From: an uncultured Eubacteriales bacterium | Lineage (GTDB): Bacteria > Bacillota > Clostridia > Christensenellales > CAG-138 | NCBI GenBank assembly: GCA_942492885.1 | Contig: OW818651.1 | Location: forward strand, 66,181-130,180 | Reading direction: 5' to 3' | Length of the DNA: 64,000 nucleotides | Shown here: in pieces, positions 20,019-63,749 of the stretch | How the letters are laid out: each line of letters opens with the position of its first letter | Position numbering within the stretch: position 1 is the stretch's first letter | The notes under the pieces: model-generated | Told to the model about the DNA's origin: nothing | The model's database searches: none | Seen by the model: the letters and a program-made list of their open reading frames with translations, nothing else | Position numbers and translations under genes: made by a program

Positions 20019-20094
20019 AGTTGCGCATTTGCTGTGTTATAATAATTTTTGCCGCGTGATTGGCGGAATGTGACGAAAGCGAGAAGAAACCGCC

Positions 20095-25197: not shown

Positions 25198-25271
25198 AGG
25201 GGTTTATCAAAATTTCAGAGATTAAATCAAAGAAGGATTACTTGCATAAACGTCCAAACGAGGTGAGCGAA

Positions 25272-25574
25272 ATGGCAAACAAAGGCGACTGGGTGCGCAT
25301 CCACAGCATCATTCTAACACCCGCGGAGCGTTCCGCCGCGGTGCCGGAGGACACGAAATCCGTGCCGCTGGAGCAGTGGACAAAAGGTTATCTGCACGCG
25401 GATACACCGTTGAGCAGCATAGCTTCGGTCACCACGCGCACGGGTCGCGTCGTCTCTGGCACGCTCGTGGACGAGACGCCGCATTATTCGCACAGCTTTG
25501 GCGACTTTGTGCCGGAGCTGCAGCATGCGGGGGACGAAGCATTCGCGTTCCTCTTCGGAGGTAATGCAAAATGA
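25272..25574 (+). CDS. ortA: 2-amino-4-ketopentanoate thiolase alpha subunit
   Basis: About 100-aa protein starting MANKGDWVRIHSI, immediately upstream of and overlapping (ATGA) the PLP-dependent OrtB-like gene. The track ORF start 25071 lies inside ord. Confidence 0.7.
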   Translation: MANKGDWVRIHSIILTPAERSAAVPEDTKSVPLEQWTKGYLHADTPLSSIASVTTRTGRVVSGTLVDETPHYSHSFGDFVPELQHAGDEAFAFLFGGNAK

Positions 25575-26968: not shown

Positions 26969-26997
26969 AATATCCTGAACAACATCGGGAGGAATAT

Positions 26998-27363
26998 ATG
27001 ATCAAACGCGAAGACGATTTTCAAACGAGGCGTGAACACCTGAAAAACCTCAACGACGAAGAGCTCAAGGCGCGTTTCTGGGCGCTCACGGGGCAGCTTG
27101 TCGACCCGCTGCTGGACTTGGCAAAGGAGAACACCTCGCCCGCCATCGAGCGCAGCGTGCTGTTGCGCATGGGCTTTAGCTCGCTGGAGGCAAAGGCGAT
27201 TGTCGACGGCTGCACGGAGAAGTGCCTACTGGGGCATGGTGCGGGCAATGTGGTCTACCGCTACAGCAAGCACACGGGGCAGGGGATTCGCGAAGCGGGG
27301 CTTGCGCTGCTCTCGCCCGCAAACATGGAAGAGGCCGCGCGCCTGTTTGGAGGCAAGCAATGA
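26998..27363 (+). CDS. oraS: D-ornithine 4,5-aminomutase small (S) subunit
   Basis: 121-aa protein whose stop overlaps the start of the large aminomutase subunit (ATGA at 27360-27363). Confidence 0.75.
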   Translation: MIKREDDFQTRREHLKNLNDEELKARFWALTGQLVDPLLDLAKENTSPAIERSVLLRMGFSSLEAKAIVDGCTEKCLLGHGAGNVVYRYSKHTGQGIREAGLALLSPANMEEAARLFGGKQ

Positions 27364-29579: not shown

Positions 29580-29580
29580 C

Positions 29581-30939: not shown

Positions 30940-30961
30940 TCATTTTTTCAGGGGATACAGT

Positions 30962-32032
30962 ATGGCAAGTTACCCGCGCATCACGGCGGATTTAGCAAAA
31001 ATCAAACACAATATCGATGCTTTGTGCACACTCTGTTACGAAAACGGTGTGTCGATTGCCGCTGTCACCAAGGTGGTCTGCGCGGATGAACGCATCGTAA
31101 ACGTGCTCGAAAACAGCGCGGCTAGCATGCTGGCCGACGCGCGCACGGAAAATCTTGCGCGGCTCAAGACGAACAAGCCCAAGCTCCTTTTGCGCGCGCC
31201 GGCGCCAGAGGAGGCAGACGAAGCAGTCGAACTCGCCGACATTAGCCTTGTTTCGGAGATAGCGACCATTCGCGCGCTGGGCAAAGCCGCGCGCACGGCG
31301 GGGAAGACGCACCAGATCATACTGATGGTCGATCTCGGCGATCTGCGCGAAGGACTGCTCTTTTTGGAACGGGAGATGATCTATCGCGCGGCGGACGCGG
31401 CAAAGGCGGAGGACGGGATCGAGCTGGTCGGCGTCGGAACCAACCTCACCTGCTATGGCGCGATCATTCCGGACGAAACCAACCTCGGCGAACTCTGCCT
31501 GATCGCGGAGGAGTTGCGCGCGCGCACGGGGCTGCCCATCCCGATTGTCTCCGGCGGAAACTCCAGCTCGCTGGGGCTACTCAAACGCGGGATGGTGCCG
31601 GAGGGGGTTAACCATCTCAGGCTCGGCGAGTCGATCCTACTCGGAAACGACACCGCCGCCTGCCGCGTGATGAACGGGCTCTACGGCGACGCGTTTACGC
31701 TCTCTACCCGGCTCATCGAGGTGCAGCGAAAGCCATCCGTGCCCATCGGCGAAAGCGGGGCAAACGCGTTCGGCGAACACCCGACGTTTGAGAGCCTCGG
31801 CGATCAGGTACGCGGCATCTGCAAGATTGGGCGACAGGATACCGTGGCGGATGGACTCACTCCGCGTGACGGCGACATCAAGATCATCGGCGCGAGTTCG
31901 GATCACCTGATCGTCGACCTCACCAACGCGAAGGAATATCGTGTGGGCGATGTTCTGGATTTCACGCCGGACTACGGTGCGCTGCTTCGGGCTTACACGA
32001 GCGCATATGTCTTTCGTGATTACACTGAATAA
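30962..32032 (+). CDS. orr: Ornithine racemase (alanine-racemase-fold PLP enzyme)
   Basis: 356 aa with the N-terminal PLP-lysine context IAAVTKVVC. It is the last gene of the cluster. Confidence 0.75.
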   Translation: MASYPRITADLAKIKHNIDALCTLCYENGVSIAAVTKVVCADERIVNVLENSAASMLADARTENLARLKTNKPKLLLRAPAPEEADEAVELADISLVSEIATIRALGKAARTAGKTHQIILMVDLGDLREGLLFLEREMIYRAADAAKAEDGIELVGVGTNLTCYGAIIPDETNLGELCLIAEELRARTGLPIPIVSGGNSSSLGLLKRGMVPEGVNHLRLGESILLGNDTAACRVMNGLYGDAFTLSTRLIEVQRKPSVPIGESGANAFGEHPTFESLGDQVRGICKIGRQDTVADGLTPRDGDIKIIGASSDHLIVDLTNAKEYRVGDVLDFTPDYGALLRAYTSAYVFRDYTE

Positions 32033-48579: not shown

Positions 48580-49509
48580 CTATTCCTCTAGCAATGCGCC
48601 CGTTGCGCGGATATCGTCGCACGCGTTTGTGCTTCTAGCGACTGCCAACAGTTCATCCATGCGCTTCTTTGAAATCAGCGGTGCGTCCTTAAACGACCAG
48701 TCGATGTCCAGTCGTTTGTACTTGTCCGTGCAGAGGTTGTTAAACGCGCAGAGTTCCCAACGTTCCGCCCCACCGATGGCGTTGATGCGCTCGCCGATGG
48801 CGCGGATGTTCTCGTTTGTATCCGTCGCCCCGGGGATGATCGGCGTGCGAATCCAAAGCCTGCCGTTACCCTTTGCCCAGAGCGCCGCGACGCCGAGGTT
48901 GCGAAGGATCATCGCGTTGCCGCGACCCGTCCAACGCATGTGATCCGCGTCGTTCATGAGCTTGATGTCATATAAGAGGATATCCGTATACGGCAGCGCC
49001 GCCTGCAACTGCTCCGTAAACACCATGCCGCTGGTGTCCACCGCGGTTTGGATGCCCTCGGCTTTGAGCAGGCGCAGCAGCTCGACCGCGCCGTCTTGCA
49101 GCAGTGCTTCTCCGCCGGAGAGGGTCACCCCGCCGTCACGCCCGAAATAGGCGCGGTCTTTGACCAGTTCGCGGCAGAGCTCGTCCGGCTCTGCGTCGAT
49201 GCCCTTGCACTCCAACGCGAGCGTGGGGCAGGCGGAAACGCAGTTGCAGCAGCCGGTGCAGAGCCTGCGGTCGATGTGTACGCCGCTTTCATCGCGGCTC
49301 AACCCCTCGTTGGGGCAAACGTTTTCGCAGCTGCCGCAGTTGATGCAGCGGGTAGAGATCCAATGCACCTGAAACTTCTTTGCGATGCTCTCTGGGTTGT
49401 GACACCATGCGCACGCAAGCGAGCAGCCTTTGAGGAAGATGGTGGTGCGAAGTCCCGGGCCGTCCTCGCTGGACATACGCTGGATGTCGAGATAGCGGAT
49501 TTTTGTCAT
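48580..49509 (-). CDS. Glycyl-radical enzyme activating protein (radical SAM)
   Basis: CxxxCxxC radical-SAM cluster in GCSLACAWCHNPES, plus two ferredoxin-type motifs (CINCGSCENVCP, CTGCCNCVSACP). Confidence 0.9.
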   Translation of the reverse strand: MTKIRYLDIQRMSSEDGPGLRTTIFLKGCSLACAWCHNPESIAKKFQVHWISTRCINCGSCENVCPNEGLSRDESGVHIDRRLCTGCCNCVSACPTLALECKGIDAEPDELCRELVKDRAYFGRDGGVTLSGGEALLQDGAVELLRLLKAEGIQTAVDTSGMVFTEQLQAALPYTDILLYDIKLMNDADHMRWTGRGNAMILRNLGVAALWAKGNGRLWIRTPIIPGATDTNENIRAIGERINAIGGAERWELCAFNNLCTDKYKRLDIDWSFKDAPLISKKRMDELLAVARSTNACDDIRATGALLEE

Positions 49510-49559
49510 ATGTATACCGATAGTAACTTTCCTTTATGATGATGCATTGCGCGATTAGC

Positions 49560-52049
49560 TCAATACCGATTATGGCTTTCTCTTGCGATGATTTCGTTTT
49601 GCAGTTCTCTGCCGATGCTCGTGAAATACGCGTTGTATCCCGTAATGCGCACGAGCAGGTTTTTATAGTTCTCCGGGTGCTGCTGCGCGTCCTTGAGCGT
49701 CTCCGCGTCGAGAATGTTGATCTGTAGCGCGGTGCCGCCGTTCTCCGTATAGCCCCGCAAAAACGCCTTGAGCTTTGCGCGCCGCTCATGATCCCGCATC
49801 AGCGAGGGGGAGAGCGTGATGGTATGGCTGGCTCCGTTGGGGAGCAGGTTGACGATGTTGCCCTGCGCATCCCTGCCGCCGAGTGCCTTGCCCACGGAGT
49901 TTGCGTTGCCCGTGGGTCCGTTGGTGTCCGCACCGTTGACGGGGCAGATGGCGTTGCTCAAAAACTGCCCGCGCGCGCGCCCATCCGCCGTCGCGGGGAG
50001 AATGAAGCCGGAGCCAATCCAGTAGTTCCAGCTCAGCATGCCGGGACGGAACTGCGCATTGGTCGACTTGGTCTTGTAGCCCCAGACGATGTCTGACCAG
50101 TCGTTCATCAGGCGGAGCGCCAGCGCGTCCGCCACGTCGTCATCCCTGCCGTATTTCGGCGCGCGGTTCTTGGCCTGTGCCTGTAAAATTTCATAGCCTT
50201 CCCAGTTGGCCTGCAGTGCTTTGATCAGCGTGTCCATGGTGCAGAGCTTTTTATCATAAACAAGATACCGGATTGCGAGCAGTGAGTCAACCGTTGTCGC
50301 GAATGTTACGCCTTCAACCGTAACAAACGAAAGCTCCGCGCCACCCTGCGTGCAGTCCTTGCCGCTCTCGGCACAGCCTTTGACGAGGCAGCTCAGGTAT
50401 GGCGTCGGCGCGTACTGCGCGCGCAGTTCGGTGGAGCGCTCATACAAACACGCCATGCGATGCATCACGCAATTGAGCTGAACCAGAAACGCCGCGTAGA
50501 ACGCCTCAAAATCCGCAAAGGTGCGCGGGTCGCCCGTGCTTGGTGCGTCGGTTTCGGCGGGGTAGGGGTTGCCCCAGAGCGCGTCGGTATAGACGATTAA
50601 ATCCTGCCCGTCGCCCAACGTGAGCTCCACCGCCTTGACGAGGTTCGGGTTGCAGTCCACGGTTGCCGAGCGGTCGTTGCCGCACATGGTGTTCTCGAGA
50701 CACCCGACGGAGGCATAGTCAAACACGTTGTCCTCATTGATGAGGTGCTCGACATGCGCGCGCTTTGCTTCCTCCAGCATACCGGCGATGGAGCGCTCGT
50801 CAAAATTGAGCAAAAACGGCGCACCCTGACTGGTGGAGATCATGTCAACCACTTTATCTAGCAGCGCTTCGGGAGAGTTTTTGTGCAGGCGCACGTTCGG
50901 CTTGGGCTCGAGGATGGGGCTCATCTCGTCGATGACTTCGAGGAACACCCAGGTCAGTTCGTTTGTCATATCCGCGCCGCCCTTGCCAAGACCGGAGAGG
51001 TTGAAGAGCTGACCGTAGCCCGCGGTGATGCCCTGATTTCCGGTTTGAATCATCGCGTCGTAGGCATAGTTGCAGTGCATCCAGAAGCACTTGAGCAGCT
51101 CCTTGCCAAATTCGCGATCCATGCCGTCTTTCATCGATTGCTCCCAGTAAGGCAGCAGGTACTGATCGATTCTGCCAAAGGAGACGCCCGCACCGGGATA
51201 GTTCTCGTCCGTGAGCACCAGCATGTGCGTCAGCCACAGCGATTGCAGCGCCTCGTGGAAATTTCGCGCGGGTTCGTTTGGCACGCGCAGGAGCACGTCA
51301 CGCATGGTGTTCAGCTCAGCCTTGCGGACGGCGTCTGATTCTTCACTTGCCAGCGTTTCGCAAAGCAGCGCATAGTTTGACGCGAGTACAACGGGCATTT
51401 CGCAACTCAATAACATGCCGCGCAACTGTCCGCCCTTCTCGCCCGCTTGCTCGGCGGGTGAGAGCGCATCATATCGCGCTTGCAAATCCGCCTTGACGCC
51501 GGAGAAGCCCTTTTGCAGCACGCTTGGATAGTCAGGGATCAAGTGCCCGCTGGTGGCGCCGCAGTTGCCGTAGCCGCGATCCTGAAACGCGAACGTCGCC
51601 TTGCGGATGCCGTCTTTGCCGAGCATCTTTTCGTTGCGCGCCTTTGCCTCCTCCTTGCTCCAGCAGCGGGAGGCCATGACGTTGAAGCGCCCGCCCGCGA
51701 TCAGATCGCCGGGGAGAATCTCCTGCGGCATGCGGTTCACGATGGCTTCCTTGATGATCCATGCGCGGCGCTCCGGCAGGGAGAGTGAGAAAAATTCCTT
51801 TGGTGGAGCGATGGTGCGCGCCGCCATCTGGAAGGATTTCCGGAATGTCGGCAGGAAGGAATAGACCTCCGGCACGATTAGAAAGCTCGTTTCGTCGAAC
51901 ACTTCGTCCCATGGCGCGCCCGTCGTAAACGCGGCGAACTCGTTGTTCCAGCCACGCTTGTCGCCTTGAAAATAATAGTCCCGCAGCCATTGAATGCGCG
52001 GCGAAAGATCAAACGGTTCTTTCACGCCCGGTTTTTTGACGGCTTCCAT
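49560..52049 (-). CDS. Glycyl-radical enzyme of the PFL2/dehydratase-lyase type, substrate unknown
   Basis: About 829 aa. C-terminal glycyl loop LLVRITGYNAYF and Cys loop SVGCLENTMCG (Cys-x-Glu). AAAGGAG ribosome-binding site before ATG 52049. Confidence 0.85.
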   Translation of the reverse strand: MEAVKKPGVKEPFDLSPRIQWLRDYYFQGDKRGWNNEFAAFTTGAPWDEVFDETSFLIVPEVYSFLPTFRKSFQMAARTIAPPKEFFSLSLPERRAWIIKEAIVNRMPQEILPGDLIAGGRFNVMASRCWSKEEAKARNEKMLGKDGIRKATFAFQDRGYGNCGATSGHLIPDYPSVLQKGFSGVKADLQARYDALSPAEQAGEKGGQLRGMLLSCEMPVVLASNYALLCETLASEESDAVRKAELNTMRDVLLRVPNEPARNFHEALQSLWLTHMLVLTDENYPGAGVSFGRIDQYLLPYWEQSMKDGMDREFGKELLKCFWMHCNYAYDAMIQTGNQGITAGYGQLFNLSGLGKGGADMTNELTWVFLEVIDEMSPILEPKPNVRLHKNSPEALLDKVVDMISTSQGAPFLLNFDERSIAGMLEEAKRAHVEHLINEDNVFDYASVGCLENTMCGNDRSATVDCNPNLVKAVELTLGDGQDLIVYTDALWGNPYPAETDAPSTGDPRTFADFEAFYAAFLVQLNCVMHRMACLYERSTELRAQYAPTPYLSCLVKGCAESGKDCTQGGAELSFVTVEGVTFATTVDSLLAIRYLVYDKKLCTMDTLIKALQANWEGYEILQAQAKNRAPKYGRDDDVADALALRLMNDWSDIVWGYKTKSTNAQFRPGMLSWNYWIGSGFILPATADGRARGQFLSNAICPVNGADTNGPTGNANSVGKALGGRDAQGNIVNLLPNGASHTITLSPSLMRDHERRAKLKAFLRGYTENGGTALQINILDAETLKDAQQHPENYKNLLVRITGYNAYFTSIGRELQNEIIARESHNRY

Positions 52050-52170
52050 GAAATATGCTCCTTTCGGTTGCAAAAAGGGTGTGCAAACAGAAAATCAATC
52101 ATAAACATATCGGTTCGATGTGATGAGAAATGCTAGAGAATCGGGTTTTCCTGTGAAATGTATCGATGTC

Positions 52171-53929: not shown

Positions 53930-54065
53930 CAAGATAATTCGATAAGAATATTGTAGCATAGGACCTCGCGCAGGGCGAGTTTTTATACGGCAAGGAGAAT
54001 AGTGAAGACGGCGGTTCGCCATCGCGAAAAAGCAAAATTCCCGCCCGTAAACTGTCGAAAAAGTC

Positions 54066-54094
54066 TTGCAAATTTGAGCGCATTCGTGTATGAT
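54066..54094 (+). promoter_or_regulatory. Promoter for tRNA-Ser
   Basis: TTGCAA (54066-54071), 17-nt spacer, TATGAT (54089-54094). Confidence 0.55.
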
Positions 54095-54121
54095 ACACAA
54101 TGCGTCCGAGAAAAAAGTCGT

Positions 54122-54211
54122 GGAGAGTTGGCTGAGTGGTCGAAGGCGCATGATTGGAAATCATGTTTACGGGTAACCGTAACTAGGGTTCAAATCCCTA
54201 ACTCTCCGCCA
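54122..54211 (+). tRNA. tRNA-Ser (anticodon GGA), CCA encoded
   Basis: Acceptor stem GGAGAGT pairs with ACTCTCC. Anticodon stem CATGA/TCATG carries the loop TTGGAAA. There is a long variable arm and a T-arm TAGGG-TTCAAAT-CCCTA. The 3' end reads GCCA. Confidence 0.9.
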
Positions 54212-54214
54212 GAA

Positions 54215-54245
54215 AAGTCCCCTGATTTGGGGGCTTTTTTCTTTT
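54215..54245 (+). terminator. Terminator after tRNA-Ser
   Basis: Stem gtcccc pairs with ggggc, followed by TTTTTT (54235-54240). Confidence 0.65.
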
Positions 54246-54707
54246 GGTGCACCTTTCCAAATAGTGTGATTTGATTGACCTGCTCCCCGAAAAAGTAGTC
54301 AACCTAAAAGAGAGAAAATGATAAACTGAAGAAAAGCAAAAGGTGGACGAAATGAAGAAGAGTAATTACACAGAGGAGCAGACTGACTAGGACGAAAGTA
54401 TGAAACAGCTTTTTTTCCAGCGAGAAGAAAGTACATTCGCAAATTCTAGTGTAAATAATTCATAATAATTAACAAATAATATATCGAATAAATGCTATAC
54501 TTATTTGAATGAATTGAAGCAAGCGAGGTACTAAAAGAAGTACAAAGCAAGTATCGCGGTGCAATTTGGCCAAGCTCCGGTTATCAGATCGCCGAAATCC
54601 AGTTGCGGCAAAGGTCTGTTCGATGCTCCATTAAGGCAGTCACTGCCGTAAGGCAAGCCAACAACCATCCCACGACGGATATCGGTTTGGAAGGAGCTCT
54701 GAAACAA

Positions 54708-57700
54708 GTGAATACTTTACTCATCGGCATCTTACTATCAGCAGGTGCCTTTTTGTTTTTTTTCGTGATACTATTGCTGTTTTTGCGCGAACGCAGCGCC
54801 AACAAGCGCGTCGCTGCCCTCTCGGTGGAAGACCCGCAGACATATGCGCGTCAGGCGACCATCGCGCACATGGCGTCCAAGAAGCGCAGCTCGCTTGACT
54901 GGCCGCTGTCGCGCCTGAAGAGCAACTATAAGCTCATTCAAGCGGCTTGCGAGGATCTCAACGAGAATTTGCTCAAGAAGGTAGACGTGCCAGCACCGGC
55001 GGAGTGGCTGCTCGACAACTTCTACATCATTGAATCCCAATATCGGATTTTGCTCTCCGAGCTGAGGCGAAAGGAATATCTGCGCCTTCCGGTGCTACAA
55101 TCCGGCCCATACAAAGGGTATGCGCGCGTCTATGCGATGGCGGTTGAACTCATTGCCGGAGGCAACAATACGCTGGATGATGCGGCGCTGCTGAACTACT
55201 TTTCGGCCTACCAGGCAAAGAACATCCTGCTTGAGCGGGAGGTGCGCGCCCTGCCGATCGTATTGCGGCTTGTGAACATTGAGGATATTCGTTATCTTTG
55301 CGAGGACATCATCAGCGAGGTCAAGAGCCGCAAGCGGGCGGACGCGGTTTATGATGCGTTTTTCAAGGAGACATCGGACAAAGCTACCAAATTTCACACG
55401 GCTCTTGTCGCAAGCATAAAATCGGGAGCGGGGGTCGACCTCACGTTTGCCGAGCACTTATGCTATCGCCTGCGCCGTGCGGAGCGAAACCCGGTGGACG
55501 CGATGCGGATGCTGGAGACTATTCTATCCAAACTCGGAACATCCGCGGACGAAATCACGCAGATGGAGCACAGCGCGCAATCCCTCGCCACGGTGGCGAT
55601 GGAGAGCAGCGTCAAGCGCCTGCACTACTTTTCTTCGCTGGACTGGGAAGCGTTTCTGCCAGCCGCAAGCCGGATTGAGCAAATTCTGCGCGCGGACAGC
55701 GACATGGTATACCAAAACATGGATCTCTCCACGCGGGATCGCTATAAGCAGCAGGTTTCGCGTATCTCCGCTGCCAGCGAATGTTCGGAGGTGCATACCG
55801 CGCGGGAAGCCTTGAAGCTTGCCGCCGCAGCACGCGGGCAGGGAGTGGATTCCGCGCGGACGGGACACGTTGGCTATTACCTTGTCGACAAGGGAGTAGG
55901 CGAGCTCAAACGCCTCTTGACGGGCAAGAAACACAGTCGATCTGGAAGTGAACGCGGAAAGATGCGCTGGGCGCTGTATCTGCTCGCGATTGCGGGCATC
56001 ACCGGACTGATCGCTCTTCTTGGTGTGATTTACGGTGTGCACGCGGCAACAAACGCAAAGCTGCTTTACGGCGTTCTATGCGCGCTGGCGCTGCTGATGC
56101 CTGCCTCGGAGATCGCGGTGTATCTGGTCAACCGCGTCGTCAGCCGGGCTCTAAAACCTTCTTTAATGCCGAAGCTGGAGCTGAAAGACGGCATCCCGGA
56201 AGAGCTGAGCACCATGGTGATCATTCCGACACTCCTGCCGGATGAAAGCCGCGTTGCAGGTGTGTTGCAAAACATGGAGGAGCATTATCTTCGAAACCGC
56301 GAGCAGAACCTGTATTTTGCGATCATCGGTGCATTCGGGGATGCTTGCTCGGCGCATTTGCCGGCGGACGATAGCGTCATTTCTGCCGCGCTGGCGGGGA
56401 TTGAAGCGCTCAATCATCAGTATGCCGATGGAGGCGAGATCTTCTTTTTCTTTCATCGGGAGCGGCAGTATAACGCGAGCAACGATGTTTGGATCGGATG
56501 GGAACGCAAGCGTGGTGCCATCATGGAATTCAACGATCTTGTACAGGGTGCGCCGGATACGAGCTTTGCCTGGGCGTCCTCCGAAACGCCGCCCTTTGGA
56601 AAGATTCGCTATGTGATCACGCTCGACAGCGAGACCATTCTGCCCATCGGTATGGCGAAGCGATTGATCGGAACCATGGCGCACCCGCTGAATCGACCCT
56701 TTGTTGACGAAGCGCGCTGTGTTGTGACAAGAGGGTATGGCCTGATTCAGCCGCATATTGATATTGAGAGCGCGGAGGGTACGCTGTTTTCGCGCATTTT
56801 CACCGATCAGGACGGAATCGATCCGTATTCCGGCGCGCTGTCGGATGTCTATCAGGATCTCTTTGGCGAAGGCATATTCACGGGAAAAGGCATCTACGAC
56901 CTTGCGACATTCCAGACCGTGCTCAAGGGAACCATCCCGGAGAACACGGTGCTGAGCCATGATTTGCTGGAGGGTTCCTACCTGAGAACCGGGCTTGCCT
57001 CCGGGCTGACCATGGTGGACGGGTTTCCTGCGCAGTATCAGGCGTATGTTGCAAGGCAGCGCCGCTGGATGCGCGGGGATTGGCAGCTGCTCACCTACAT
57101 TCTGCCGAACATTCGGGACATCGACAACAACCGGATGAAGAATCCGCTCTCCGCCCTCTCCCGATGGAAGATTTACGATAACCTGCGACGCAGTTTGATT
57201 TCGCCTGCGCTGTTGCTATTGGCGGAATTGGCGGTGTTCGTGCTGCCGGGGAATGTGTTCGTGTGGTTTGGTTTGCTGCTGCTGACGATCATGTTGCCGC
57301 TGATGGGCACGATATTGAGCAGCGCGCTATCTTTATTTCGGAAAAATGCGCGCACAAGGCGATATCTTCCGGTGGTTGATTCGCTCAAGTCCGCTCTGTT
57401 GCAGGGATTGCTGGAACTCACGTTTTTACCCTATCAGGCGTGGCTTTCGGTCAGCGCGATTCTACTCACGCTCATGCGCATCTGGGTGACGAAAAAGAAC
57501 CTGCTTGAATGGGTGACCTCTGCCGATTCGGAAGCAAAGCCATTGGCAACACTCGGCGGATACCTGCGCTTTATGCAGGCGGCGATCTGGCTGTCGCTCT
57601 TATGTTTTGCGGCATTGGCGGTCACGGGGCAATGGGATCGCTTGCTGATGACTCTGCCGTTGATTCTCTTGTGGATGATGTCGCCCGTAATTGCGTTTGC

Positions 57701-60700
57701 CATCAGCAGGGAAACAAAGGCCAAGAACGAGATTGAGCCCGCAAGCAGGGCAGAGCTTGAAAAAATAGCGCGGAAAACATGGCGGTACTTTGAGGAGTTC
57801 AGCGGGAAAGAAACGCACCATCTTGCGCCGGACAACTATCAGCAGGAGCCGTATCGGGGCGTTGCCGCGCGCACTTCGCCGACCAATATCGGCTTTGGTC
57901 TGCTCGCGACGATGACGGCCCGGGACATGGGGTTTATCGGCACGATTGATATGATCAGTCTGGTGGAGAAAACGATTGCGACTATCGAAGGGTTGCCCAA
58001 ATGGAACGGCCATCTCTTTAACTGGTACGATACATCAACACTCAAACCGCTCAATCCTGCCTATGTTTCAACGGTGGACAGCGGGAATCTCACAGGATAC
58101 CTCATGACGCTTGCACAGGGGTTGGAGGAATATCTCGAACGACCCCTGTTCGACATTCGCTTTTTCGACGGGCTGATCGCAACGATCGCCAGCGCGGAAA
58201 AAAAGCAAGCGTTCCTTTGGAAGACGCGCGTGCGTGAGGCGAAGGTCGCCGTTTCAAAGGCGGGCACCTCATCCATCTCCGGACTGCGCATCATGCATCT
58301 TGCCTTGCTGGAGTGGCAGGATTTGCTGGATGACGCGACCATTGAAGGCGATGTTTGGCTGGAGAAGGCAAAAAAACAGTTGCAGCAACAGCAAATTGCG
58401 CTGGAAGCCTATTTTCCCGCGGCTCTTCTGCCGCGCGAACTGCCTGCGGCGGAGGACACATCCGAGGATCTCGGCGCACTCCTGCAACTCATCGATGGCG
58501 CTTGCGCCTTTGGCAAACTACCCGTAAGGCAGCGGGATGCTTCAGCGCTTGCCGGGCGCATGCTCGAGCGGGATACAGACGCGCAGGCACCGCTCGACCC
58601 GGAGATTGTGCCGTGGCTCAACGGCATACAGGTTGCGCTGCTCAAGTCGTCGGAGGCATCGCTTCACGAGGTTTTGCGATGTACATCGTTGATCAGTCGC
58701 ATCCGCGCGCTGGTCGCCGCGGTTCGATTCCGCCCGCTTTACAATGAGAAGAAGAAGCTGCTCTCGATCGGATTTAATCTTGAAGAGAGTAAGCGCACGG
58801 ATTCTTACTATGACCTTCTTGCGTCGGAAGCACGGCTGGCCAGCTATCTTGCGATTTCAAACGGAGAAATTCCGTCCACACACTGGTTTCGCATGGGACG
58901 GACGCTGACGATCGTTGGCAAATACAAAGGCTTGGTCTCGTGGACGGGAACGATGTTTGAGTATTTGATGCCGCTGCTCATCATGAAAAGCTATCGCAAT
59001 ACGCTGCTGGACGAGGCCTGCTCGTTTGCGGTGAGAAGTCAGATGAAGTTTGCGAAAACGCGCGATATGCCATGGGGCATGTCTGAGTCCGGCTTTAACT
59101 CGCTCGATAAGCGAAACGACTATCAATACAAGGCAATCGGCGTTCCGTGGCTTGGGCTCAAGCGCGGCTTAAACGAGGATTCTGTCGTCGCGCCGTATGC
59201 AACGTTTCTGGCGCTGCTTGTGGATCCGGAGGAAGCGATCAAAAACATTGCCCGCCTCAAGGAGGAGCAGATCGAAGGCCCGTACGGCTTCTATGAATCG
59301 GCGGACTACACGAAAGAACGGCTGTACTTTGAACCCAAGCGCGTGATCATCAAGAGCTTTATGGCGCATCATGAAGGGATGAGCCTGCTTGCGATCAATG
59401 AGTATCTCAACCGAAACCGCATGCAGGAACGATTTATTCAGAACCCGGAGATTCGCGCCTATCGTCACCTGCTGCAGGAGAAGGTTCCCGCTAACATCGT
59501 CGTGACCAAGGCGACGAAGGAAAAGCTTGCGCCGCTCTCGTTCAAATTATCCAAACAGGAGCTTCCGGTGCGCATGATGGGTCGCCCCGATCTGGCTTTG
59601 CCGCGCGTGCATATCCTATCCAACGGAAACTACTCTGTGATGCTGACGGACGCGGGCACGGGATTCAGCAAAAACAAGATCGCTGCCATGACAAGGTGGC
59701 AGGAGGACAGCACGCTGGATCACTTCGGAACGTTTTTGTATCTGCGTGATATGGAGAGCGGGGCGGTCTGGTCTTCTACCTATGCGCCGCTGAACAGACT
59801 GCCGGAGCGTTACGAGGTCGAGTTTGCAGACGACAAGGCGGTCTATCTTCGCACTGACGGGGACATTGACACGAAGACGGAGATTTTCGTCGCCACGGAT
59901 GACGACGCCGAGATTCGCAAGCTGACGCTGAAGAACAACTCGGATACCGTAAAGACGATCGAGATCACCAGCTACTGCGAAATCGTGCTTGCCCCGCGCG
60001 CGGCTGATCAGGCGCACATGGTCTTTAGCAACCTGTTTGTGGAGACCGATTATCACGCGCCAAGCGGCATGGTCAGCGCAAAACGCCGACCAAGATCGGA
60101 CAAAGAAAAGGTCCTGTGGTTCGGCGCGTTTCTGGTGCGCAGTGCCGACCAGGACGAAGAGATCGAGTATGAAACCGACCGCGCGCAGTTCCTTGGTCGT
60201 GGAAACGATGTGGGATGTCCGCAGGCGCTCCGGCGCAGCCAGCCACTCTCCGGCACCGTTGGTGCGGTGCTTGACCCGATCATCAGCCTGCGTACGCGGG
60301 TCGTGATTGAGCCGGGCAGAACGGCAACGGTCTCGTTTGTGATGATCACAGCGGACCGAAAAGACGCGCTGCTCTCGATCGCCAAGCGGTATGAGACTCC
60401 GCGGGATATTGAACTGAGTGCGCACCGCGCTTTTGAGCGAAGCCGGATTGAGAACAAATATCGGGATTTCAAAGCAAACGAGATCACGCTGTTTTTGAAC
60501 ATGCTCTCGCATCTGCTGTTCCTAAGCCCTGCACGACGGGCAAACAGCAAGGAGATTGCGCAAAATAACAGCGGACAATCTGCGCTCTGGCGATATGGTA
60601 TTTCGGGCGATCTGCCTATCCTGCTGGTTGAGCTCACCGCTGAAACCCAAATTCCACTGCTGCACGAGGCGATCAAAGCATATGAGTACTGGGGCGTCAT

Positions 60701-63413
60701 GGATATCAGCGCGGATATGATCGTCATTGTCAGCGAAGAGAACGCCTACACCTCACCGCTTCGGGACTTGGTGACGGGCATCGTTGGTTCATATAAGCGA
60801 TATACCGCCATGCTTTGCCCGGATGAAATCGTGGTGCTGAACCGAAAGGATCTGACACAGGCGGACGTGCAGCTGTTAATCTCTGCCGCGCGGATCTATC
60901 TAGCCGGCGGAAAAGGCAATATTGAAAAACAGCTGAAGGGGTTTGCCGGGCGGCAGCTTCCGCAGCGAACGCGCTTTACGCGAGAAATCGCATCTGATCC
61001 AACAGAAATTGCGCTGCAGCGGGAACTGCTCTATGACAACGGCATCGGCGGATTTAGACCCGACGGGAAAGAATATTGCATCCAGCTGGAGCACGAGAAT
61101 ACGCCCGCGCCGTGGATCAACGTGATAACAAACCCGAACTTCGGCTTCATTGTTTCGGAATCCGGCGCGGGCTATACTTGGAGCGAAAACAGCCATGAGT
61201 TCCGCCTGACACCTTGGTCAAACGATCCGGTGTCCGATCCGGCGGGCGAGACGATCTATCTCCACGACAGAGACACAGGCAGTATTTTTGCGCCGACAGC
61301 TCTGCCGATTCGGGATGACGGGATCTATCGTGTGCGGCACGGGTTTGGGTATTCGGTGTTTGAACACACCTGTCACGGCATTGGGCAGACGTTGACGCAG
61401 TTTGTCCCTGTCAAGGACACGCTCAAGATCAGCCTGCTCGTGTTGAAAAACGAGACGGACATGGTGAGGCGGCTCGGCGCGACGTATTATGTGCGCCCGG
61501 TCCTGGGCGTAAGCGACCAAATTACCGCGATGCACATTCAAACATCACAAAACGAGTTCGGCGCATTGCTGATGCAAAATCCATTTAACGAAGATTTCCC
61601 CGGGAGAATCGGTTATCTGGATTGTTCGGTCTCAGAACGCTCCGTGACGGGCGATCGCAAGGAGTTTTTCGGTTCCGGCGGGCTAAGATCACCCGCGTCT
61701 CTCTCGCGGGACTGCTTATCCGGCGAGTTGGGCATCGCCCTTGATCCCTGCGGCGCGATGCGGATCGATCTCGAACTACAACCACACGAAGAAAAGACGA
61801 TCGTATTCCTGCTGGGCGTTGCTGACAACGCGGCAGAGGTGCCGCGCGTGAGCGCCGAGTACCGGAGCGCTGAGAAGGCGCAGGCGGCGTTGCAAGCTGT
61901 CACCGATAGCTGGGATGCTGCGCTCGGACAAGTGCGCGTTGAGACGCCGGATACAGCCATGAACCTGTTGCAGAACGGCTGGCTACTCTATCAGGTCATC
62001 GCCTGTCGCCTTTGGGCGCGCACCGGATTCTACCAGTCCGGCGGCGCGTATGGATTTCGCGATCAGTTGCAGGATGTACTGGCAGTTGCGGCAAGCAATC
62101 CGGCGATTGCGCGAAGACAGATATTGCTGCACGCAAAGCATCAGTTTGTGGAAGGCGATGTGCTGCACTGGTGGCACGCGCCGTTGGATAACGGCGTGCG
62201 CACGCGTTTTTCCGATGATTTTCTCTGGTTGCCGTATGTGACGGCAGAATATGTTCGCATCAGCGGAGATTTTACGATTCTGCAAGAGGCGGTTCCGTTC
62301 CTTCAGGGAACACCGCTATCCGAACAGGAGCATGAGCGCTACGAGCGCGCGACACAATCAAGCGAGGAGGCAACGCTATACGAGCATTGTCTCAGGGCAA
62401 TCCAAAGAGGGCTTTCCTTTGGCGAGCACGGCTTGCCACTGATGGGCGGCGGAGACTGGAACGACGGTATGAACGCCGTCGGCGAAAAAGGGTTGGGGGA
62501 AAGTGTCTGGCTCGGGTGGTTCCTTTCCGACGTTCTTGCGAAGTTTTCGCCGATTTGCATCGAGCTAGGCGACGTATCGGCGGCGGACGCGTTGCTTGCA
62601 ACCCGCGAAACGCTGCTGGCGGCTATAGAAGAACACGCTTGGGACGGCGGCTGGTATCGGCGCGCGTATTTTGACGATGGCGCCGCGCTAGGCTCGATTC
62701 ATAATGTTGATTGCAAAATTGATTCGATTGCGCAATCCTGGTCGGTTCTGTCCGGCGGCGGTGAACCGGAGCGGGCGCGCAAGGCGATGCAATCGCTGGA
62801 GGACTATCTGGTGAATCGAGACGAAGGGCTCATCAAGCTTTTAACCCCGCCGTTTGACAAAGGCAAGAGCGAACCTGGCTATATCAAGGGCTATGTTCCG
62901 GGCGTTCGTGAAAATGGCGGACAATACACGCACGCAGCCGCTTGGGTGATTGCCGCGTTTGCAAAGCAGGGTGAAGGGGACAAGGCGCTGGCGCTCTATG
63001 ACCTGATCAATCCGATTCATCATACAAGTAGTTATCGCAGCTATGCAAAGTACAAAACGGAGCCCTACGCACTTGCTGCGGATGTTTACGCCGTGTGGCC
63101 GCATGTTGGGCGCGGGGGATGGTCCTGGTACACCGGAGCCGCCGGGTGGTTCTATCGCGCGGGGCTGGAGTCCATCCTCGGCATCAAAAAACTAGGGGAA
63201 TTCCTCGTCATCGATCCTTGCATTCCGGCGCATTGGCAGACGTTTGGCGTGGAATACCGCTATGGCAACGACTTGTATCACATCACCATCCGCAACCCAA
63301 ACCGGGTGCAGTCAGGCGTGGTGAGCAAGTCGATGGATGGAGGAACGTTCTTCGGCGCGCTCGCGCTACAAAACGACGCAAAGGAGCATTGGGTCGATGT
63401 GTTGATGGGGTAA
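54708..63413 (+). CDS. Cyclic beta-1,2-glucan synthase-like giant multidomain protein (GT84 glycosyltransferase + GH94 phosphorylase-type domain)
   Basis: One uninterrupted frame. N-terminal transmembrane helix and the AEWLLDNFYIIESQ region. GT84-type motifs ITLDSETILP (about 56.62 kb), VLSHDLLEGS and QRRWMRGDWQ (about 57.06 kb). A block of transmembrane helices at 57.19-57.72 kb. GH94-type motifs YGFRDQLQD (about 62.05 kb), LHWWH and GGGDWNDGMN (about 62.45 kb). GTG 54708 is preceded by GGAAGGAG. The track start is TTG 54603. Confidence 0.85.
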   Translation: MNTLLIGILLSAGAFLFFFVILLLFLRERSANKRVAALSVEDPQTYARQATIAHMASKKRSSLDWPLSRLKSNYKLIQAACEDLNENLLKKVDVPAPAEWLLDNFYIIESQYRILLSELRRKEYLRLPVLQSGPYKGYARVYAMAVELIAGGNNTLDDAALLNYFSAYQAKNILLEREVRALPIVLRLVNIEDIRYLCEDIISEVKSRKRADAVYDAFFKETSDKATKFHTALVASIKSGAGVDLTFAEHLCYRLRRAERNPVDAMRMLETILSKLGTSADEITQMEHSAQSLATVAMESSVKRLHYFSSLDWEAFLPAASRIEQILRADSDMVYQNMDLSTRDRYKQQVSRISAASECSEVHTAREALKLAAAARGQGVDSARTGHVGYYLVDKGVGELKRLLTGKKHSRSGSERGKMRWALYLLAIAGITGLIALLGVIYGVHAATNAKLLYGVLCALALLMPASEIAVYLVNRVVSRALKPSLMPKLELKDGIPEELSTMVIIPTLLPDESRVAGVLQNMEEHYLRNREQNLYFAIIGAFGDACSAHLPADDSVISAALAGIEALNHQYADGGEIFFFFHRERQYNASNDVWIGWERKRGAIMEFNDLVQGAPDTSFAWASSETPPFGKIRYVITLDSETILPIGMAKRLIGTMAHPLNRPFVDEARCVVTRGYGLIQPHIDIESAEGTLFSRIFTDQDGIDPYSGALSDVYQDLFGEGIFTGKGIYDLATFQTVLKGTIPENTVLSHDLLEGSYLRTGLASGLTMVDGFPAQYQAYVARQRRWMRGDWQLLTYILPNIRDIDNNRMKNPLSALSRWKIYDNLRRSLISPALLLLAELAVFVLPGNVFVWFGLLLLTIMLPLMGTILSSALSLFRKNARTRRYLPVVDSLKSALLQGLLELTFLPYQAWLSVSAILLTLMRIWVTKKNLLEWVTSADSEAKPLATLGGYLRFMQAAIWLSLLCFAALAVTGQWDRLLMTLPLILLWMMSPVIAFAISRETKAKNEIEPASRAELEKIARKTWRYFEEFSGKETHHLAPDNYQQEPYRGVAARTSPTNIGFGLLATMTARDMGFIGTIDMISLVEKTIATIEGLPKWNGHLFNWYDTSTLKPLNPAYVSTVDSGNLTGYLMTLAQGLEEYLERPLFDIRFFDGLIATIASAEKKQAFLWKTRVREAKVAVSKAGTSSISGLRIMHLALLEWQDLLDDATIEGDVWLEKAKKQLQQQQIALEAYFPAALLPRELPAAEDTSEDLGALLQLIDGACAFGKLPVRQRDASALAGRMLERDTDAQAPLDPEIVPWLNGIQVALLKSSEASLHEVLRCTSLISRIRALVAAVRFRPLYNEKKKLLSIGFNLEESKRTDSYYDLLASEARLASYLAISNGEIPSTHWFRMGRTLTIVGKYKGLVSWTGTMFEYLMPLLIMKSYRNTLLDEACSFAVRSQMKFAKTRDMPWGMSESGFNSLDKRNDYQYKAIGVPWLGLKRGLNEDSVVAPYATFLALLVDPEEAIKNIARLKEEQIEGPYGFYESADYTKERLYFEPKRVIIKSFMAHHEGMSLLAINEYLNRNRMQERFIQNPEIRAYRHLLQEKVPANIVVTKATKEKLAPLSFKLSKQELPVRMMGRPDLALPRVHILSNGNYSVMLTDAGTGFSKNKIAAMTRWQEDSTLDHFGTFLYLRDMESGAVWSSTYAPLNRLPERYEVEFADDKAVYLRTDGDIDTKTEIFVATDDDAEIRKLTLKNNSDTVKTIEITSYCEIVLAPRAADQAHMVFSNLFVETDYHAPSGMVSAKRRPRSDKEKVLWFGAFLVRSADQDEEIEYETDRAQFLGRGNDVGCPQALRRSQPLSGTVGAVLDPIISLRTRVVIEPGRTATVSFVMITADRKDALLSIAKRYETPRDIELSAHRAFERSRIENKYRDFKANEITLFLNMLSHLLFLSPARRANSKEIAQNNSGQSALWRYGISGDLPILLVELTAETQIPLLHEAIKAYEYWGVMDISADMIVIVSEENAYTSPLRDLVTGIVGSYKRYTAMLCPDEIVVLNRKDLTQADVQLLISAARIYLAGGKGNIEKQLKGFAGRQLPQRTRFTREIASDPTEIALQRELLYDNGIGGFRPDGKEYCIQLEHENTPAPWINVITNPNFGFIVSESGAGYTWSENSHEFRLTPWSNDPVSDPAGETIYLHDRDTGSIFAPTALPIRDDGIYRVRHGFGYSVFEHTCHGIGQTLTQFVPVKDTLKISLLVLKNETDMVRRLGATYYVRPVLGVSDQITAMHIQTSQNEFGALLMQNPFNEDFPGRIGYLDCSVSERSVTGDRKEFFGSGGLRSPASLSRDCLSGELGIALDPCGAMRIDLELQPHEEKTIVFLLGVADNAAEVPRVSAEYRSAEKAQAALQAVTDSWDAALGQVRVETPDTAMNLLQNGWLLYQVIACRLWARTGFYQSGGAYGFRDQLQDVLAVAASNPAIARRQILLHAKHQFVEGDVLHWWHAPLDNGVRTRFSDDFLWLPYVTAEYVRISGDFTILQEAVPFLQGTPLSEQEHERYERATQSSEEATLYEHCLRAIQRGLSFGEHGLPLMGGGDWNDGMNAVGEKGLGESVWLGWFLSDVLAKFSPICIELGDVSAADALLATRETLLAAIEEHAWDGGWYRRAYFDDGAALGSIHNVDCKIDSIAQSWSVLSGGGEPERARKAMQSLEDYLVNRDEGLIKLLTPPFDKGKSEPGYIKGYVPGVRENGGQYTHAAAWVIAAFAKQGEGDKALALYDLINPIHHTSSYRSYAKYKTEPYALAADVYAVWPHVGRGGWSWYTGAAGWFYRAGLESILGIKKLGEFLVIDPCIPAHWQTFGVEYRYGNDLYHITIRNPNRVQSGVVSKSMDGGTFFGALALQNDAKEHWVDVLMG

Positions 63414-63420: not shown

Positions 63421-63458
63421 AAAAAGAAGCGGGGGCAGTTAATCTGCCTCCGCTTTGA
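63421..63458. terminator. Bidirectional terminator between the giant gene and the antitoxin-like gene
   Basis: Stem gcgggggcag (63429-63438) pairs with ctgcctccgc (63444-63453), with an A-run before and a short T-tract after. Confidence 0.6.
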
Positions 63459-63500: not shown

Positions 63501-63749
63501 TCAGACCTTCTTTGCCAGCACGGCAGGAAGCCCTTCGATGAAGGAGGTGCGCTCCGGCTCATCGAGCGAGTCAATGTACTCGATCAAAACAGAGAGTTTT
63601 TCATACTGCGCTGCTGAGATTAACACGGCATCCGGCTGATTGTTCTTCAAAACGAAGATTTTCCCGCAGAGTTCCGCTTTTTCACGGCAAGTCTTATAAC
63701 TCTTAATCATGTCCGAATTAGATACAATCGCATTGGTCGATATCTTCAT
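63501..63749 (-). CDS. Phd/YefM-family antitoxin-like protein (no cognate toxin seen)
   Basis: 82 aa. The pattern IVSNSDMIKSYKTCREKAELCGKIFVLKNNQPDAVLISAAQYEKL fits the Phd/YefM N-terminal fold. On the minus strand, a TTGACA-17-TAAAAT promoter lies at about 63786-63814. Confidence 0.6.
   Translation of the reverse strand: MKISTNAIVSNSDMIKSYKTCREKAELCGKIFVLKNNQPDAVLISAAQYEKLSVLIEYIDSLDEPERTSFIEGLPAVLAKKV

Follow-up and report, generated by a model that had tools for sequence, protein, structure and literature searches.

The long open reading frame towards the end of the window, by which we mean the whole stretch of 64,000 nucleotides from an uncultured Eubacteriales bacterium analysed here, raises the question of whether a clostridial cell carries a complete cyclic β-1,2-glucan synthase (Cgs) and, if so, what such an enzyme does there. 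Judged by homology with the enzymes of Agrobacterium tumefaciens and Thermoanaerobacter italicus, from which its mechanism would follow, the product of this gene, hereafter cgs, is very likely a cyclic β-1,2-glucan synthase. The features of the locus are collected in Table 1.

Table 1. Coordinates, strand and supporting evidence of the features at the cgs locus (aa, residues of the cgs product).
Feature	Position	Strand	Evidence
tRNA-Ser(GGA)	54122-54211	+	ARAGORN, Rfam tRNA
tRNA terminator hairpin	54211-54240	+	terminator scan
Conserved non-coding 5' leader, ~160 nt	54549..54707	+	alignments A1-A4, pair counts, third-codon-position comparison
cgs ORF	54708..63413	+	ORF list and translation; phmmer versus 8rf0/8rf9; start common to orthologues
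N-terminal TM anchor, aa 3-26, then basic RERSANKR	54714..54785	+	hydropathy, 19-residue window, mean 2.96
N-terminal cytoplasmic scaffold domain (predicted), aa about 95-410	54990..55937	+	phmmer alignment with A. tumefaciens Cgs NTD
TM hairpin, aa 419-474	55962..56129	+	hydropathy; aligned to equivalent 8rf0 segment
GT84 domain, aa about 490-825	56175..57182	+	residue-by-residue 8rf0 alignment, 188-homologue survey, weak Pfam Glyco_trans_2_3
Post-GT membrane region, aa 828-1001	57189..57710	+	hydropathy, flanking basic residues, 8rf0 alignment
Cyclization (GH189) domain, aa 1011-1606	57738..59525	+	8wy1 match; Pfam PF10091
GH94 phosphorylase region, aa 1607-2901	59526..63410	+	Pfam PF06165, PF17167; 8rf0 alignment
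Strong hairpin between convergent cgs and 82-aa genes	about 63426-63456	.	fold energy
Convergent 82-aa gene, weakly Phd/YefM-like	63501..63749	-	Pfam PF02604 E = 1.1e-4, under cut-off

The longest frame in the ORF list (54603..63413, forward strand) opens with TTG and comprises 2,936 codons, but the sequence comparison favours GTG 54708 as the better start. The 105 nt between the two positions are non-coding, since relatives show indels there that are not divisible by three, and the longer version was rejected on account of these frame-breaking indels. The motif GGAAGGAG is located 10 nt 5' of GTG 54708, and the start position is common to seven orthologues, one of which has ATG. Read from this codon to the stop at 63413, the unbroken frame encodes 2,901 aa with no internal stops, in line with the single ORF of about 2,900 codons of the preliminary description. 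The GC content of cgs (0.560) resembles that of the window (0.562), as had been observed before, and its GC3 of 0.67 lies at the bottom end of that of its neighbours (0.68-0.77). Recent horizontal transfer was rejected as unlikely, because the GC content matches that of the window and sequence identity declines gradually within Clostridia. Among orthologues, amino acid identity of 71-82% is far above the 45-61% identity at third codon positions, which indicates that cgs is under purifying selection.

Comparison by phmmer showed the whole ORF to be collinear with the solved A. tumefaciens Cgs (8rf0/8rf9; 1813 bits), with residues 95-1151 aligning continuously to 8rf0 87-1131 (634.9 bits), residues 1324-2859 aligning to 8rf0 1250-2801, and the GH94 region scoring 527.6 bits (alignment to 8rf0 2295-2801). 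The cyclization (CY) domain matched that of T. italicus (TiCGS-Cy, 8wy1) with 512.7 bits. The resulting module order, TM-NTD-TM-GT84-TM-CY-GH94, is that of experimentally characterised Cgs, as proposed earlier. Pfam models for the GH94 supersandwich (residues 2133-2370) and catalytic domain (2402-2825) matched well over their cut-offs (PF06165, 7e-152; PF17167, 1.5e-119), and the Glycoamylase model PF10091 matched residues 1367-1579. Since Pfam holds no GT84 model, and Glyco_trans_2_3 gave only a weak, sub-threshold match in this region, GT84 membership rests on the alignment to 8rf0; a search of NCBIfam with the Cgs protein returned no match. Residues 1152-1323 form an insert in the CY domain that aligned to neither 8rf0 nor 8wy1 and exceeds the corresponding unaligned 8rf0 gap in length. 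The expected N-terminal anchor and internal hydrophobic clusters were recovered by hydropathy analysis as spans at residues 3-26, 419-474, 828-877 and 953-1001, which correspond in the 8rf0 alignment to membrane parts of that structure and carry basic residues on their domain-facing sides; the region at 828-1001 combines a hydrophobic hairpin of 50 residues with an amphipathic stretch and a further pair of hydrophobic spans. The protein is thereby predicted to be an integral membrane protein with every catalytic domain in the cytoplasm.

All motifs quoted in the preliminary description were found in the translation, namely LDSET (639-643), HDLLEGS (751-757) and QRRWMRGDWQ (784-793) for GT84 and FRDQLQD (2450-2456), LHWWH (2486-2490) and GGGDWND (2580-2586) for GH94. 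Conservation was surveyed in 188 homologues, with GT84 residues assigned through the 8rf0 alignment in the numbering of PMC10901819 and CY residues mapped by adding 1003 to the 8wy1 chain position to give TiCGS numbering. The priming tyrosine Y707 within GIDPY (Atu Y694), the GT84 catalytic base D752 within HDLLEGS (Atu D739) and R786-W787 within QRRW, corresponding to the Q/RxxRW motif with Atu R773, are each invariant (188/188). In the GH189 domain the acid/base E1374, E1418, the nucleophile E1460, H1554/H1555 and D1124 are present, each in at least 187 of the 188 sequences; E1374, E1418, E1460 and H1554/H1555 correspond to TiCGS E1356, E1400, E1442 and H1536/H1537, and the Atu CY residues used in this test were D1104 and E1300. 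The CY key residue S1121 is likewise present and invariant or nearly so. The GH94 aspartate D2452 and the catalytic acid D2586 (Atu D2393 and D2528) occur in all 188 homologues. Substituted catalytic acid/base residues had been named beforehand as grounds for refuting the reading; the base of GT84, both catalytic glutamates of GH189 and the GH94 aspartates are all retained, and the protein resembles A. tumefaciens Cgs in its priming tyrosine, catalytic base, RW motif, CY Asp/Glu and GH94 Asp.

Two positions of the GT84 domain deviate. D640 is the conserved first aspartate of the DxD motif (Atu D624/D626), whereas the second is replaced by E642, giving a DxE that had escaped the first reading, as had the conserved leader discussed below. 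Moreover, A542 occupies the column of Atu D527, a residue said to bind UDP (PMC10901819). These changes could therefore alter which donor or metal is preferred, and an active enzyme with shifted chemistry, using another donor or metal or releasing a product unlike the classical 17-25-mer in size or linearity, would be in keeping with these substitutions, with the restriction of Glu to 11 of the 188 homologues, all in the clade at ≥70% identity, and with the long unaligned CY insert. We nevertheless regard such a shift as improbable: the change from Asp to Glu retains the carboxylate, the D527 column is variable in the family (Asp in 128/188, Ala in 53/188) while the adjoining D545 is invariant, and the priming tyrosine, the catalytic base, the RW motif and the catalytic residues of the CY and GH94 domains are all kept.

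For the cyclic β-1,2-glucan synthase that we favour, the chemistry we infer by homology would take place at the cytoplasmic face of the membrane, where every catalytic domain would lie. The GT84 domain would glucosylate its own Tyr707 from UDP-glucose and then lengthen a β-1,2-linked chain, with D752 acting as catalytic base, R786/W787 as the RW motif and D640/E642 as the metal/UDP site. The GH94 domain, with D2586 as acid, would shorten over-long chains using phosphate, and the GH189 domain, with E1460 as nucleophile and E1374 as acid/base, would cleave the chain by intramolecular transglycosylation, so that a ring of some 17-25 glucose units would be set free in the cytoplasm.

Orthologues carry the source labels 'cellobiose phosphorylase' and 'glucoamylase family protein', and GH94 and GH189 domains are active on preformed β-1,2-glucans in vitro (PMC10834661), so a role in breakdown or remodelling was also considered, in which the protein would be a phosphorylase or transglycosylase with imported β-1,2-glucans as its substrate. 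Soluble GH94 phosphorylases (cellobiose and chitobiose phosphorylase, and the 1,2-β-oligoglucan phosphorylases of Listeria and Lachnoclostridium) share fold and catalytic Asp with the C-terminal ~790 residues (3qde, 293.7 bits; 1v7v, 280.6 bits), but these are free-standing enzymes of the cytoplasm, about 800-1,100 aa in length, which, unlike the protein described here, have no GT84, CY or membrane parts. Their matches extend over only the C-terminal third (residues 2114-2901 of 2,901), what is left being TM, GT84 and GH189. Both source labels were rejected; for the Cgs family 'cellobiose phosphorylase' is an under-annotation. A breakdown enzyme is very improbable in view of the GT84 domain, membrane segments and priming tyrosine kept under selection and the lack of linked sugar-uptake genes. 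That cgs is a decaying relic without function, for which its sole deviations, DxE and Ala542, could be adduced, is scarcely conceivable and a pseudogene was rejected, since the 8.7 kb frame stays open, orthologues with 70-81% amino acid identity share both deviations while third codon positions are far less conserved, and leader and synteny are conserved.

The cyclic β-1,2-glucan synthase reading can be placed against known systems. The protein shares with A. tumefaciens Cgs/ChvB (8rf0, 8rf9; PMC10901819) the module order and is collinear with it over about 2,750 residues, but differs in the DxE, the Ala at the D527 column and the unaligned CY insert; in addition, the host is a presumably one-membrane member of the Clostridia, the leader is long and conserved, and no chvA-type exporter is adjacent, whereas the proteobacterial system comprises Cgs together with a ChvA/NdvA/Cgt exporter and a periplasmic product. 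Within Clostridia, the CY domain of T. italicus has been solved, makes cyclic β-1,2-glucan in vitro and founded family GH189 (PMC10834661), although this homologue (TiCGS, 8wy1) is characterised as the isolated CY domain only. The nearest full-length Thermoanaerobacter protein in our set, that of T. kivui (P0084), is 44% identical, and its gene lies between corA and an ABC-2/GldG-like transporter, unlike the locus described here. GT84-GH94 fusions of cultured Clostridia have appeared in CAZy-based studies in which transcription was seen, and Cthe_1221 of Clostridium thermocellum has been catalogued as GH94+GT84 since 2014 (PMC3990059). Such fusions are likewise full-length and without a linked ChvA-type exporter, but have the canonical DxD and no such leader; homologues from Acetobacterium and Acetivibrio are 46-50% identical to our protein (Cthe_1221 was left out of the alignment).

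A motif scan of genome contigs was saturated by universal GDWNDGMN-type motifs and yielded distant relatives from many phyla, while close relatives were reached through contigs encoding homologous proteins. Full-length homologues with 40-53% identity proved plentiful, occurring in Acetobacterium, Acetivibrio, Thermoanaerobacter, Thermincola and Desulfosporosinus, and were also found in Acidobacteriota, Planctomycetota, Chloroflexota, Spirochaetota and other phyla. The rarity in Gram-positive-type genomes implied by the preliminary description is therefore not borne out, as the family is abundant in Clostridia and present in further phyla.

With regard to transcription, the terminator of the upstream tRNA insulates cgs from transcription upstream, and this terminator together with the gene's own leader and with the convergent gene and hairpin downstream makes a single-gene transcription unit with its own promoter plausible. 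Synteny between cgs and the convergent 82-aa gene is preserved in each of the close relatives (L081-L086), and the latter gene has a promoter-like site at 63814-63786. The strong hairpin between the two genes has a fold energy of -28.3 kcal/mol (z -6.0) on the forward strand and -21.4 kcal/mol (z -3.7) on the reverse, its U-tract is weak on the forward strand and better on the reverse, and a consensus terminator scan did not call it; it is likely a bidirectional terminator shared by the two convergent genes. Of the monocistronic arrangement between two terminators proposed earlier, the tRNA terminator is supported and the single unit plausible, while a terminator of its own for cgs would give way to this probably shared hairpin.

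The leader is predicted to fold into several helices, one of which joins CUCC (54626-54629) to the Shine-Dalgarno sequence GGAG (54693-54696). In a set of eight related sequences, from which the structure was derived and on which it was also tested, 89.9% of cells were paired compared to 33-44% in slid controls, and eight pairs showed two-sided changes compared to 0-4; the anti-Shine-Dalgarno/Shine-Dalgarno helix contains one GC-to-AU compensatory change. The modelled fold thus probably masks the ribosome-binding site of cgs. The leader was seen only ahead of cgs, in eight loci of the clade, with a pattern scan of metagenomes adding one locus, also ahead of cgs, and nhmmer detecting no further copies in 2.1 Mb of loci. 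Rfam 15 returned for positions 54000-54800 (E ≤ 1) only the tRNA and chance matches over it and no leader family, nor did two orthologous leaders (L084 and L087) give any match; no riboswitch, c-di-GMP classes included, was detected by Rfam in the leader of the window or in these two leaders. In relatives, divergent c-di-GMP signalling genes lie upstream of cgs and corA lies downstream, so the leader might sense a small ligand or ion. We tentatively suggest, without placing much weight on it, an undescribed cis-regulatory RNA that may gate Cgs translation by Shine-Dalgarno masking, perhaps in response to such a ligand or ion.

What becomes of the glucan, and what purpose it serves, is the part of the reading that reaches furthest beyond homology. 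As noted before, no ChvA/NdvA-like exporter is linked to cgs: Pfam found no ABC_membrane-type exporter among the larger ORFs selected across 54 kb upstream, the downstream view being 590 nt, and none lay within 10 kb of cgs in six close relatives. An ABC ATPase with a 766-aa permease (16571-19968) was rejected as candidate, being 35 kb away, devoid of an ABC_membrane domain and non-syntenic in relatives. Of the 91 cgs loci that were sampled, only 4 had a ChvA-like half-transporter inside the fetched flanks, so a missing linked exporter is normal, and the stand-alone position taken earlier for a peculiarity is the norm. No sugar-uptake or glucan-modifying genes were found linked to cgs. The Clostridia-like host that had been proposed agrees with the uncultured clostridial lineage, and by its taxonomy the host would lack a periplasm. 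With a single membrane, a neutral ring of 3 kDa would not serve as a periplasmic osmolyte, and the physiological logic of the proteobacterial system would therefore not be transferable. We lean, with low confidence, towards a stress-linked role, with export, if any, via an unlinked transporter. The literature searched offered nothing relevant on cyclic glucan in vivo in Firmicutes, and it reports neither the destination nor the function of cyclic β-1,2-glucan for bacteria that lack an outer membrane; in one review the Thermoanaerobacter source organism is even called 'Gram-negative' (PMC11842490).

As an enzyme, the protein adds little to a family whose domain order and mechanism are established and whose clostridial members are represented in CAZy-based catalogues and the PDB. 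What it raises is a biological question, namely where the glucan of a cell with a single membrane ends up and what use it has, and this is better put to cultured carriers such as C. thermocellum, Acetobacterium and Thermoanaerobacter than to the present uncultured lineage. The clade-specific leader and the stress/c-di-GMP neighbourhood offer modest leads on the regulation of cgs. If the proposed function of the leader is true, it would tie cyclic glucan synthesis in single-membrane Clostridia to a stress or biofilm signal and provide a handle on the role of cyclic glucans outside diderm bacteria.

Comparison with solved structures was decisive, at the level of sequence, for the identity of the cgs product, and the earlier claim of a GT84-GH94 cyclic β-1,2-glucan synthase homologue stands. 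The protein is collinear with A. tumefaciens (Atu) Cgs (8rf0; PMC10901819) over residues 95-1151 (8rf0 87-1131, 634.9 bits) and residues 1324-2859 (8rf0 1250-2801), and its middle domain matches the cyclization domain (CY, GH189) of Thermoanaerobacter italicus TiCGS (8wy1; PMC10834661) with 512.7 bits. Residues of 8rf0 are numbered as in its structural paper (LDADT giving D624/D626 and GIDPY giving Y694), and 8wy1 chain positions plus 1003 give the published TiCGS numbering, an offset verified on E1356, E1400, E1442, H1536/7 and the stated construct 1005-1591. Among 188 full-length homologues surveyed by BLAST, every functional residue mapped in this way (Y707 to D2586) was invariant or present in 187/188; the catalytic acid/base residues D752, E1374 and D2586, whose substitution would have spoken against this identity, are conserved. 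The family HMM searches that had been suggested agreed in part: Pfam detected the GH94 supersandwich (7e-152), the GH94 catalytic domain (1.5e-119) and 'Glycoamylase' PF10091 (1.5e-20), but its glycosyltransferase match was sub-threshold, the GT84 family was absent among its matches and the NCBIfam search gave no match.

The large reading frame described previously is intact: 54603..63413 (+) is a single uninterrupted entry in the window ORF list, its translation is without internal stops, GTG 54708 yields 2,901 aa, and all six motifs quoted were found (residues 639-643, 751-757, 784-793, 2450-2456, 2486-2490 and 2580-2586). This GTG is predicted to be the correct start, with GGAAGGAG located 10 nt upstream and the same codon serving as start in seven orthologues as well (V/M-N/D-T..., ATG in one). 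The first possible start, TTG 54603, was rejected because relatives carry 1- and 2-nt indels between it and position 54708, which argues that this interval is non-coding. The coding GC resembles that of the window, as stated earlier (0.560 vs 0.562), and GC3, at 0.67, lies near the bottom of the range of its neighbours.

Features of the cgs locus, its product and related loci (L081-L087, close relatives; L088 and L090, other Firmicutes)
Feature	Sequence	Position	Strand	Remark
606-aa ORF	window	2954-4774	+	
ABC ATPase and 766-aa protein	window	16571-19968	+	
Ornithine-fermentation set	window	24139-32032	+	2,4-diaminopentanoate dehydrogenase, PLP enzymes, B12-dependent aminomutase large subunit, MutL-like reactivase, racemase
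Glycyl-radical enzyme and radical-SAM activase	window	48580-52073	-	
tRNA-Ser(GGA)	window	54122-54211		
Terminator hairpin of tRNA-Ser(GGA)	window	54211-54240		
Leader	window	54549-54707	+	
cgs	window	54708-63413	+	
Ala at Atu D527 column	window	56331-56333		A542
DxD variant	window	56625-56633		D-S-E, aa 640-642
82-aa gene	window	63501-63749	-	weak Phd/YefM antitoxin-like match
Putative promoter of 82-aa gene	window	63814-63786		near-consensus
GT84 priming Tyr	cgs product	Y707		Atu Y694
GT84 UDP/metal site	cgs product	D640		Atu D624
GT84 catalytic base	cgs product	D752		Atu D739
GT84 RW motif	cgs product	R786-W787		Atu R773-W774
CY residue	cgs product	D1124		Atu D1104
CY acid/base	cgs product	E1374		Atu E1300, TiCGS E1356
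CY residue	cgs product	E1418		TiCGS E1400
CY nucleophile	cgs product	E1460		TiCGS E1442
CY residues	cgs product	H1554/5		TiCGS H1536/7
GH94 residue	cgs product	D2452		Atu D2393
GH94 catalytic acid	cgs product	D2586		Atu D2528
Divergent c-di-GMP signalling module	relatives	L081 6813-9365; L082 3885-9316; L083 6675-9233; L084 7000-9135; L085 3768-9301; L086 3485-9321; L087 339-3639		
Leader	relatives	L081 9840-10000; L082 9797-9955; L083 9844-10000; L084 9860-10021; L085 9785-9955; L086 9799-9955; L087 4014-4171		
corA	relatives and other Firmicutes	L082 19298-20212; L085 19287-20285; L086 19304-20218; L088 20396-21319; L090 6819-7778		
ABC-2 set	T. kivui (L090)	16803-20752	same as cgs	

Hydropathy analysis of the cgs product located spans at residues 3-26, 419-474 (two), 828-877 (hairpin-length) and 953-1001 (two), and because basic clusters flank every domain-facing side, all catalytic domains are predicted to be cytoplasmic, as they are in the A. 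tumefaciens structure. Following the homologous enzymes (PMC10901819, PMC10834661), we propose that Y707 would be self-glucosylated from UDP-glucose, that the β-1,2 chain would be extended and trimmed by the GH94 domain through phosphorolysis, and that the GH189 domain would finally release the ring via transglycosylation.

The Clostridia-like gene content attributed to the host is in accordance with its PheT relatives, close Cgs orthologues and anaerobe gene sets. The window PheT is 93% identical to proteins from uncultured genomes; its relatives with names are 'Clostridia bacterium', 'Clostridiales bacterium' and, at 90%, 'Christensenella sp.' (Christensenella being placed in Clostridia), and the close Cgs orthologues derive from 'Clostridia bacterium', 'Firmicutes bacterium HGW-Firmicutes-9' and 'Eubacteriales bacterium' genomes. 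The ornithine-fermentation set and the glycyl-radical enzyme are typical of anaerobic Clostridia, and ClpB, GlmS, PyrG and PheST are consistent with such a host; from taxonomy only, we infer a single-membrane envelope. No Pfam match at E <= 0.01 was obtained for the 606-aa ORF, whose product has a lipoprotein-like N-terminus and an HELGH zinc-peptidase motif.

As proposed before, no ChvA/NdvA-like exporter is found nearby: an ABC_membrane-type exporter was detected neither among the larger ORFs selected window-wide and scanned against Pfam nor, in six close relatives, at distances of up to 10 kb from cgs. Lack of a linked exporter is not unusual, as genes resembling the cgs-adjacent probes from one Rhizobium and one Komagataeibacter locus (ABC_membrane and ABC_tran) occurred within the fetched flanks of only 4/91 cgs loci, and the Acetobacterium and Acetivibrio loci had none. 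In Thermoanaerobacter kivui, an ABC-2 set (ATPase, ABC2_membrane, GldG-like ABC_transp_aux and DUF4340) lies immediately 3' of cgs and is a candidate alternative glucan export route in this one Firmicute. Elsewhere in the window, an ABC ATPase precedes a 766-aa protein without a Pfam match, which looks like an uncharacterised permease since it combines about eight N-terminal hydrophobic spans with a large soluble C-terminal part.

Regarding the flanks of cgs, the tRNA terminator reported upstream was recovered; as to the terminator ascribed to cgs itself, a hairpin of very high stability (-28.3 kcal/mol, z = -6.0) follows the stop codon, its U-tract is good on the minus strand and poor on the plus strand, and a consensus terminator scan did not call it. 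Most likely, this hairpin serves as terminator for cgs as well as for the convergent 82-aa gene, an orphan with no toxin partner and with a putative near-consensus promoter, which in every close relative (L081-L086) also lies just downstream of cgs and points towards it. The setting is alike in all six relatives, with a divergent PAS-GGDEF-HD-GYP gene upstream and, in 4/6 (L082, L085, L086 and L087), genes for a histidine kinase and a pair of response regulators (one carrying HD-GYP) between that gene and cgs. Downstream are the 82-aa Phd-like gene, sometimes corA, DUF5670, dodecin, Transgly_assoc, CsbD and rubrerythrin-like genes, which, apart from the first two, are small general-stress-type genes. 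The window has tRNA-Ser, a short-chain dehydrogenase and a sugar-phosphate isomerase-like gene instead of the c-di-GMP module, and the leader is retained. In genomes as close as these, shared gene order lends only weak support to a function. A role linked to stress or to c-di-GMP would fit this neighbourhood. Three separate Firmicutes lineages (the cgs clade, Acetobacterium and T. kivui) have a corA-type magnesium-channel gene no more than a few kb from cgs, which was not seen in about 80 non-Firmicutes loci; this proximity may be chance.

The leader, the 160 nt before the cgs start, had gone unnoticed in the preliminary description. It is conserved in all eight clade loci at 62-79% nucleotide identity, which matches the coding sequence and is well above third codon positions (45-61%); for the 150 nt preceding it, identity is only 55-67%, close to the 51-55% obtained after shuffling. 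RNAalifold predicted six helices, of which the closing one pairs UUCGAUGCUCC with GGAGCUCUGAA, the predicted Shine-Dalgarno sequence, the upstream partner being CUCC. In the eight-sequence alignment, pairing was kept in 89.9% of cells as compared to 33-44% with slid partners, and eight pairs changed on both sides vs 0-4 in slid controls, the structure having been derived from the same eight, closely related sequences. One of these two-sided, compensatory changes, GC to AU within the anti-SD/SD helix, occurs in two loci. Folded singly, the sequence shows no exceptional stability (z = -0.9). No Rfam family matched, no further copy was found in 2.1 Mb of fetched loci, and one extra metagenome match again lies 5' of cgs; among the loci searched, the element thus occurs only ahead of cgs and only in its clade. 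It is possibly a new regulatory element.

The sense of rarity conveyed by the preliminary description did not hold, since full-length relatives occur across Clostridia and many phyla and clostridial members are already in the literature; cgs is a further member of a well-known, widespread family. A word-indexed search gave 598 matches, and among the 120 listed, mostly full length, a small clade of metagenome genomes showed 70-81% identity, Acetobacterium and unnamed Clostridia about 50%, and Acetivibrio, Herbivorax, Pseudobacteroides, Thermoanaerobacter and Thermincola 44-49%. A genome scan added full-length relatives (35-46%) from Acidobacteriota, Planctomycetota, Verrucomicrobiota, Chloroflexota, Nitrospirota, Myxococcota, Spirochaetota, Gemmatimonadota and all classes of Proteobacteria. 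The T. italicus domain, the only characterised CGS domain from Firmicutes, cyclizes linear β-1,2-glucan and is the founding member of GH189 (PMC10834661); Cthe_1221 of C. thermocellum, a transcribed gene, has been catalogued as GH94+GT84 (PMC3990059), and GT84 was reported in oil-reservoir clostridial genomes. A 2025 review calls T. italicus 'a Gram-negative bacterium' (PMC11842490). In the literature open to search, no paper deals with in vivo cyclic glucan in a Firmicute or poses the role of a CGS in a single-membrane cell. The envelope question raised previously therefore seems unaddressed, and it concerns hundreds of genomes rather than the cgs locus in particular.

Two active-site positions deviate from A. 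tumefaciens Cgs. The second Asp of the GT84 DxD motif is replaced by Glu (E642), a state shared by 11/188 homologues, which are exactly the clade at least 70% identical to the cgs product; judged from the alignment, DxE is a clade-specific active-site variant. The column of Atu D527, described as a UDP-binding residue, holds Ala (A542), as in 53/188 homologues, and D545, three residues further, is invariant. Decay was rejected as the cause, because both E642 and A542 are retained in orthologues with only 45-61% identity at third codon positions, which argues for tolerated, selected states. Moreover, the combination of A542 with an invariant D545 raises the question of which Asp truly binds UDP family-wide.
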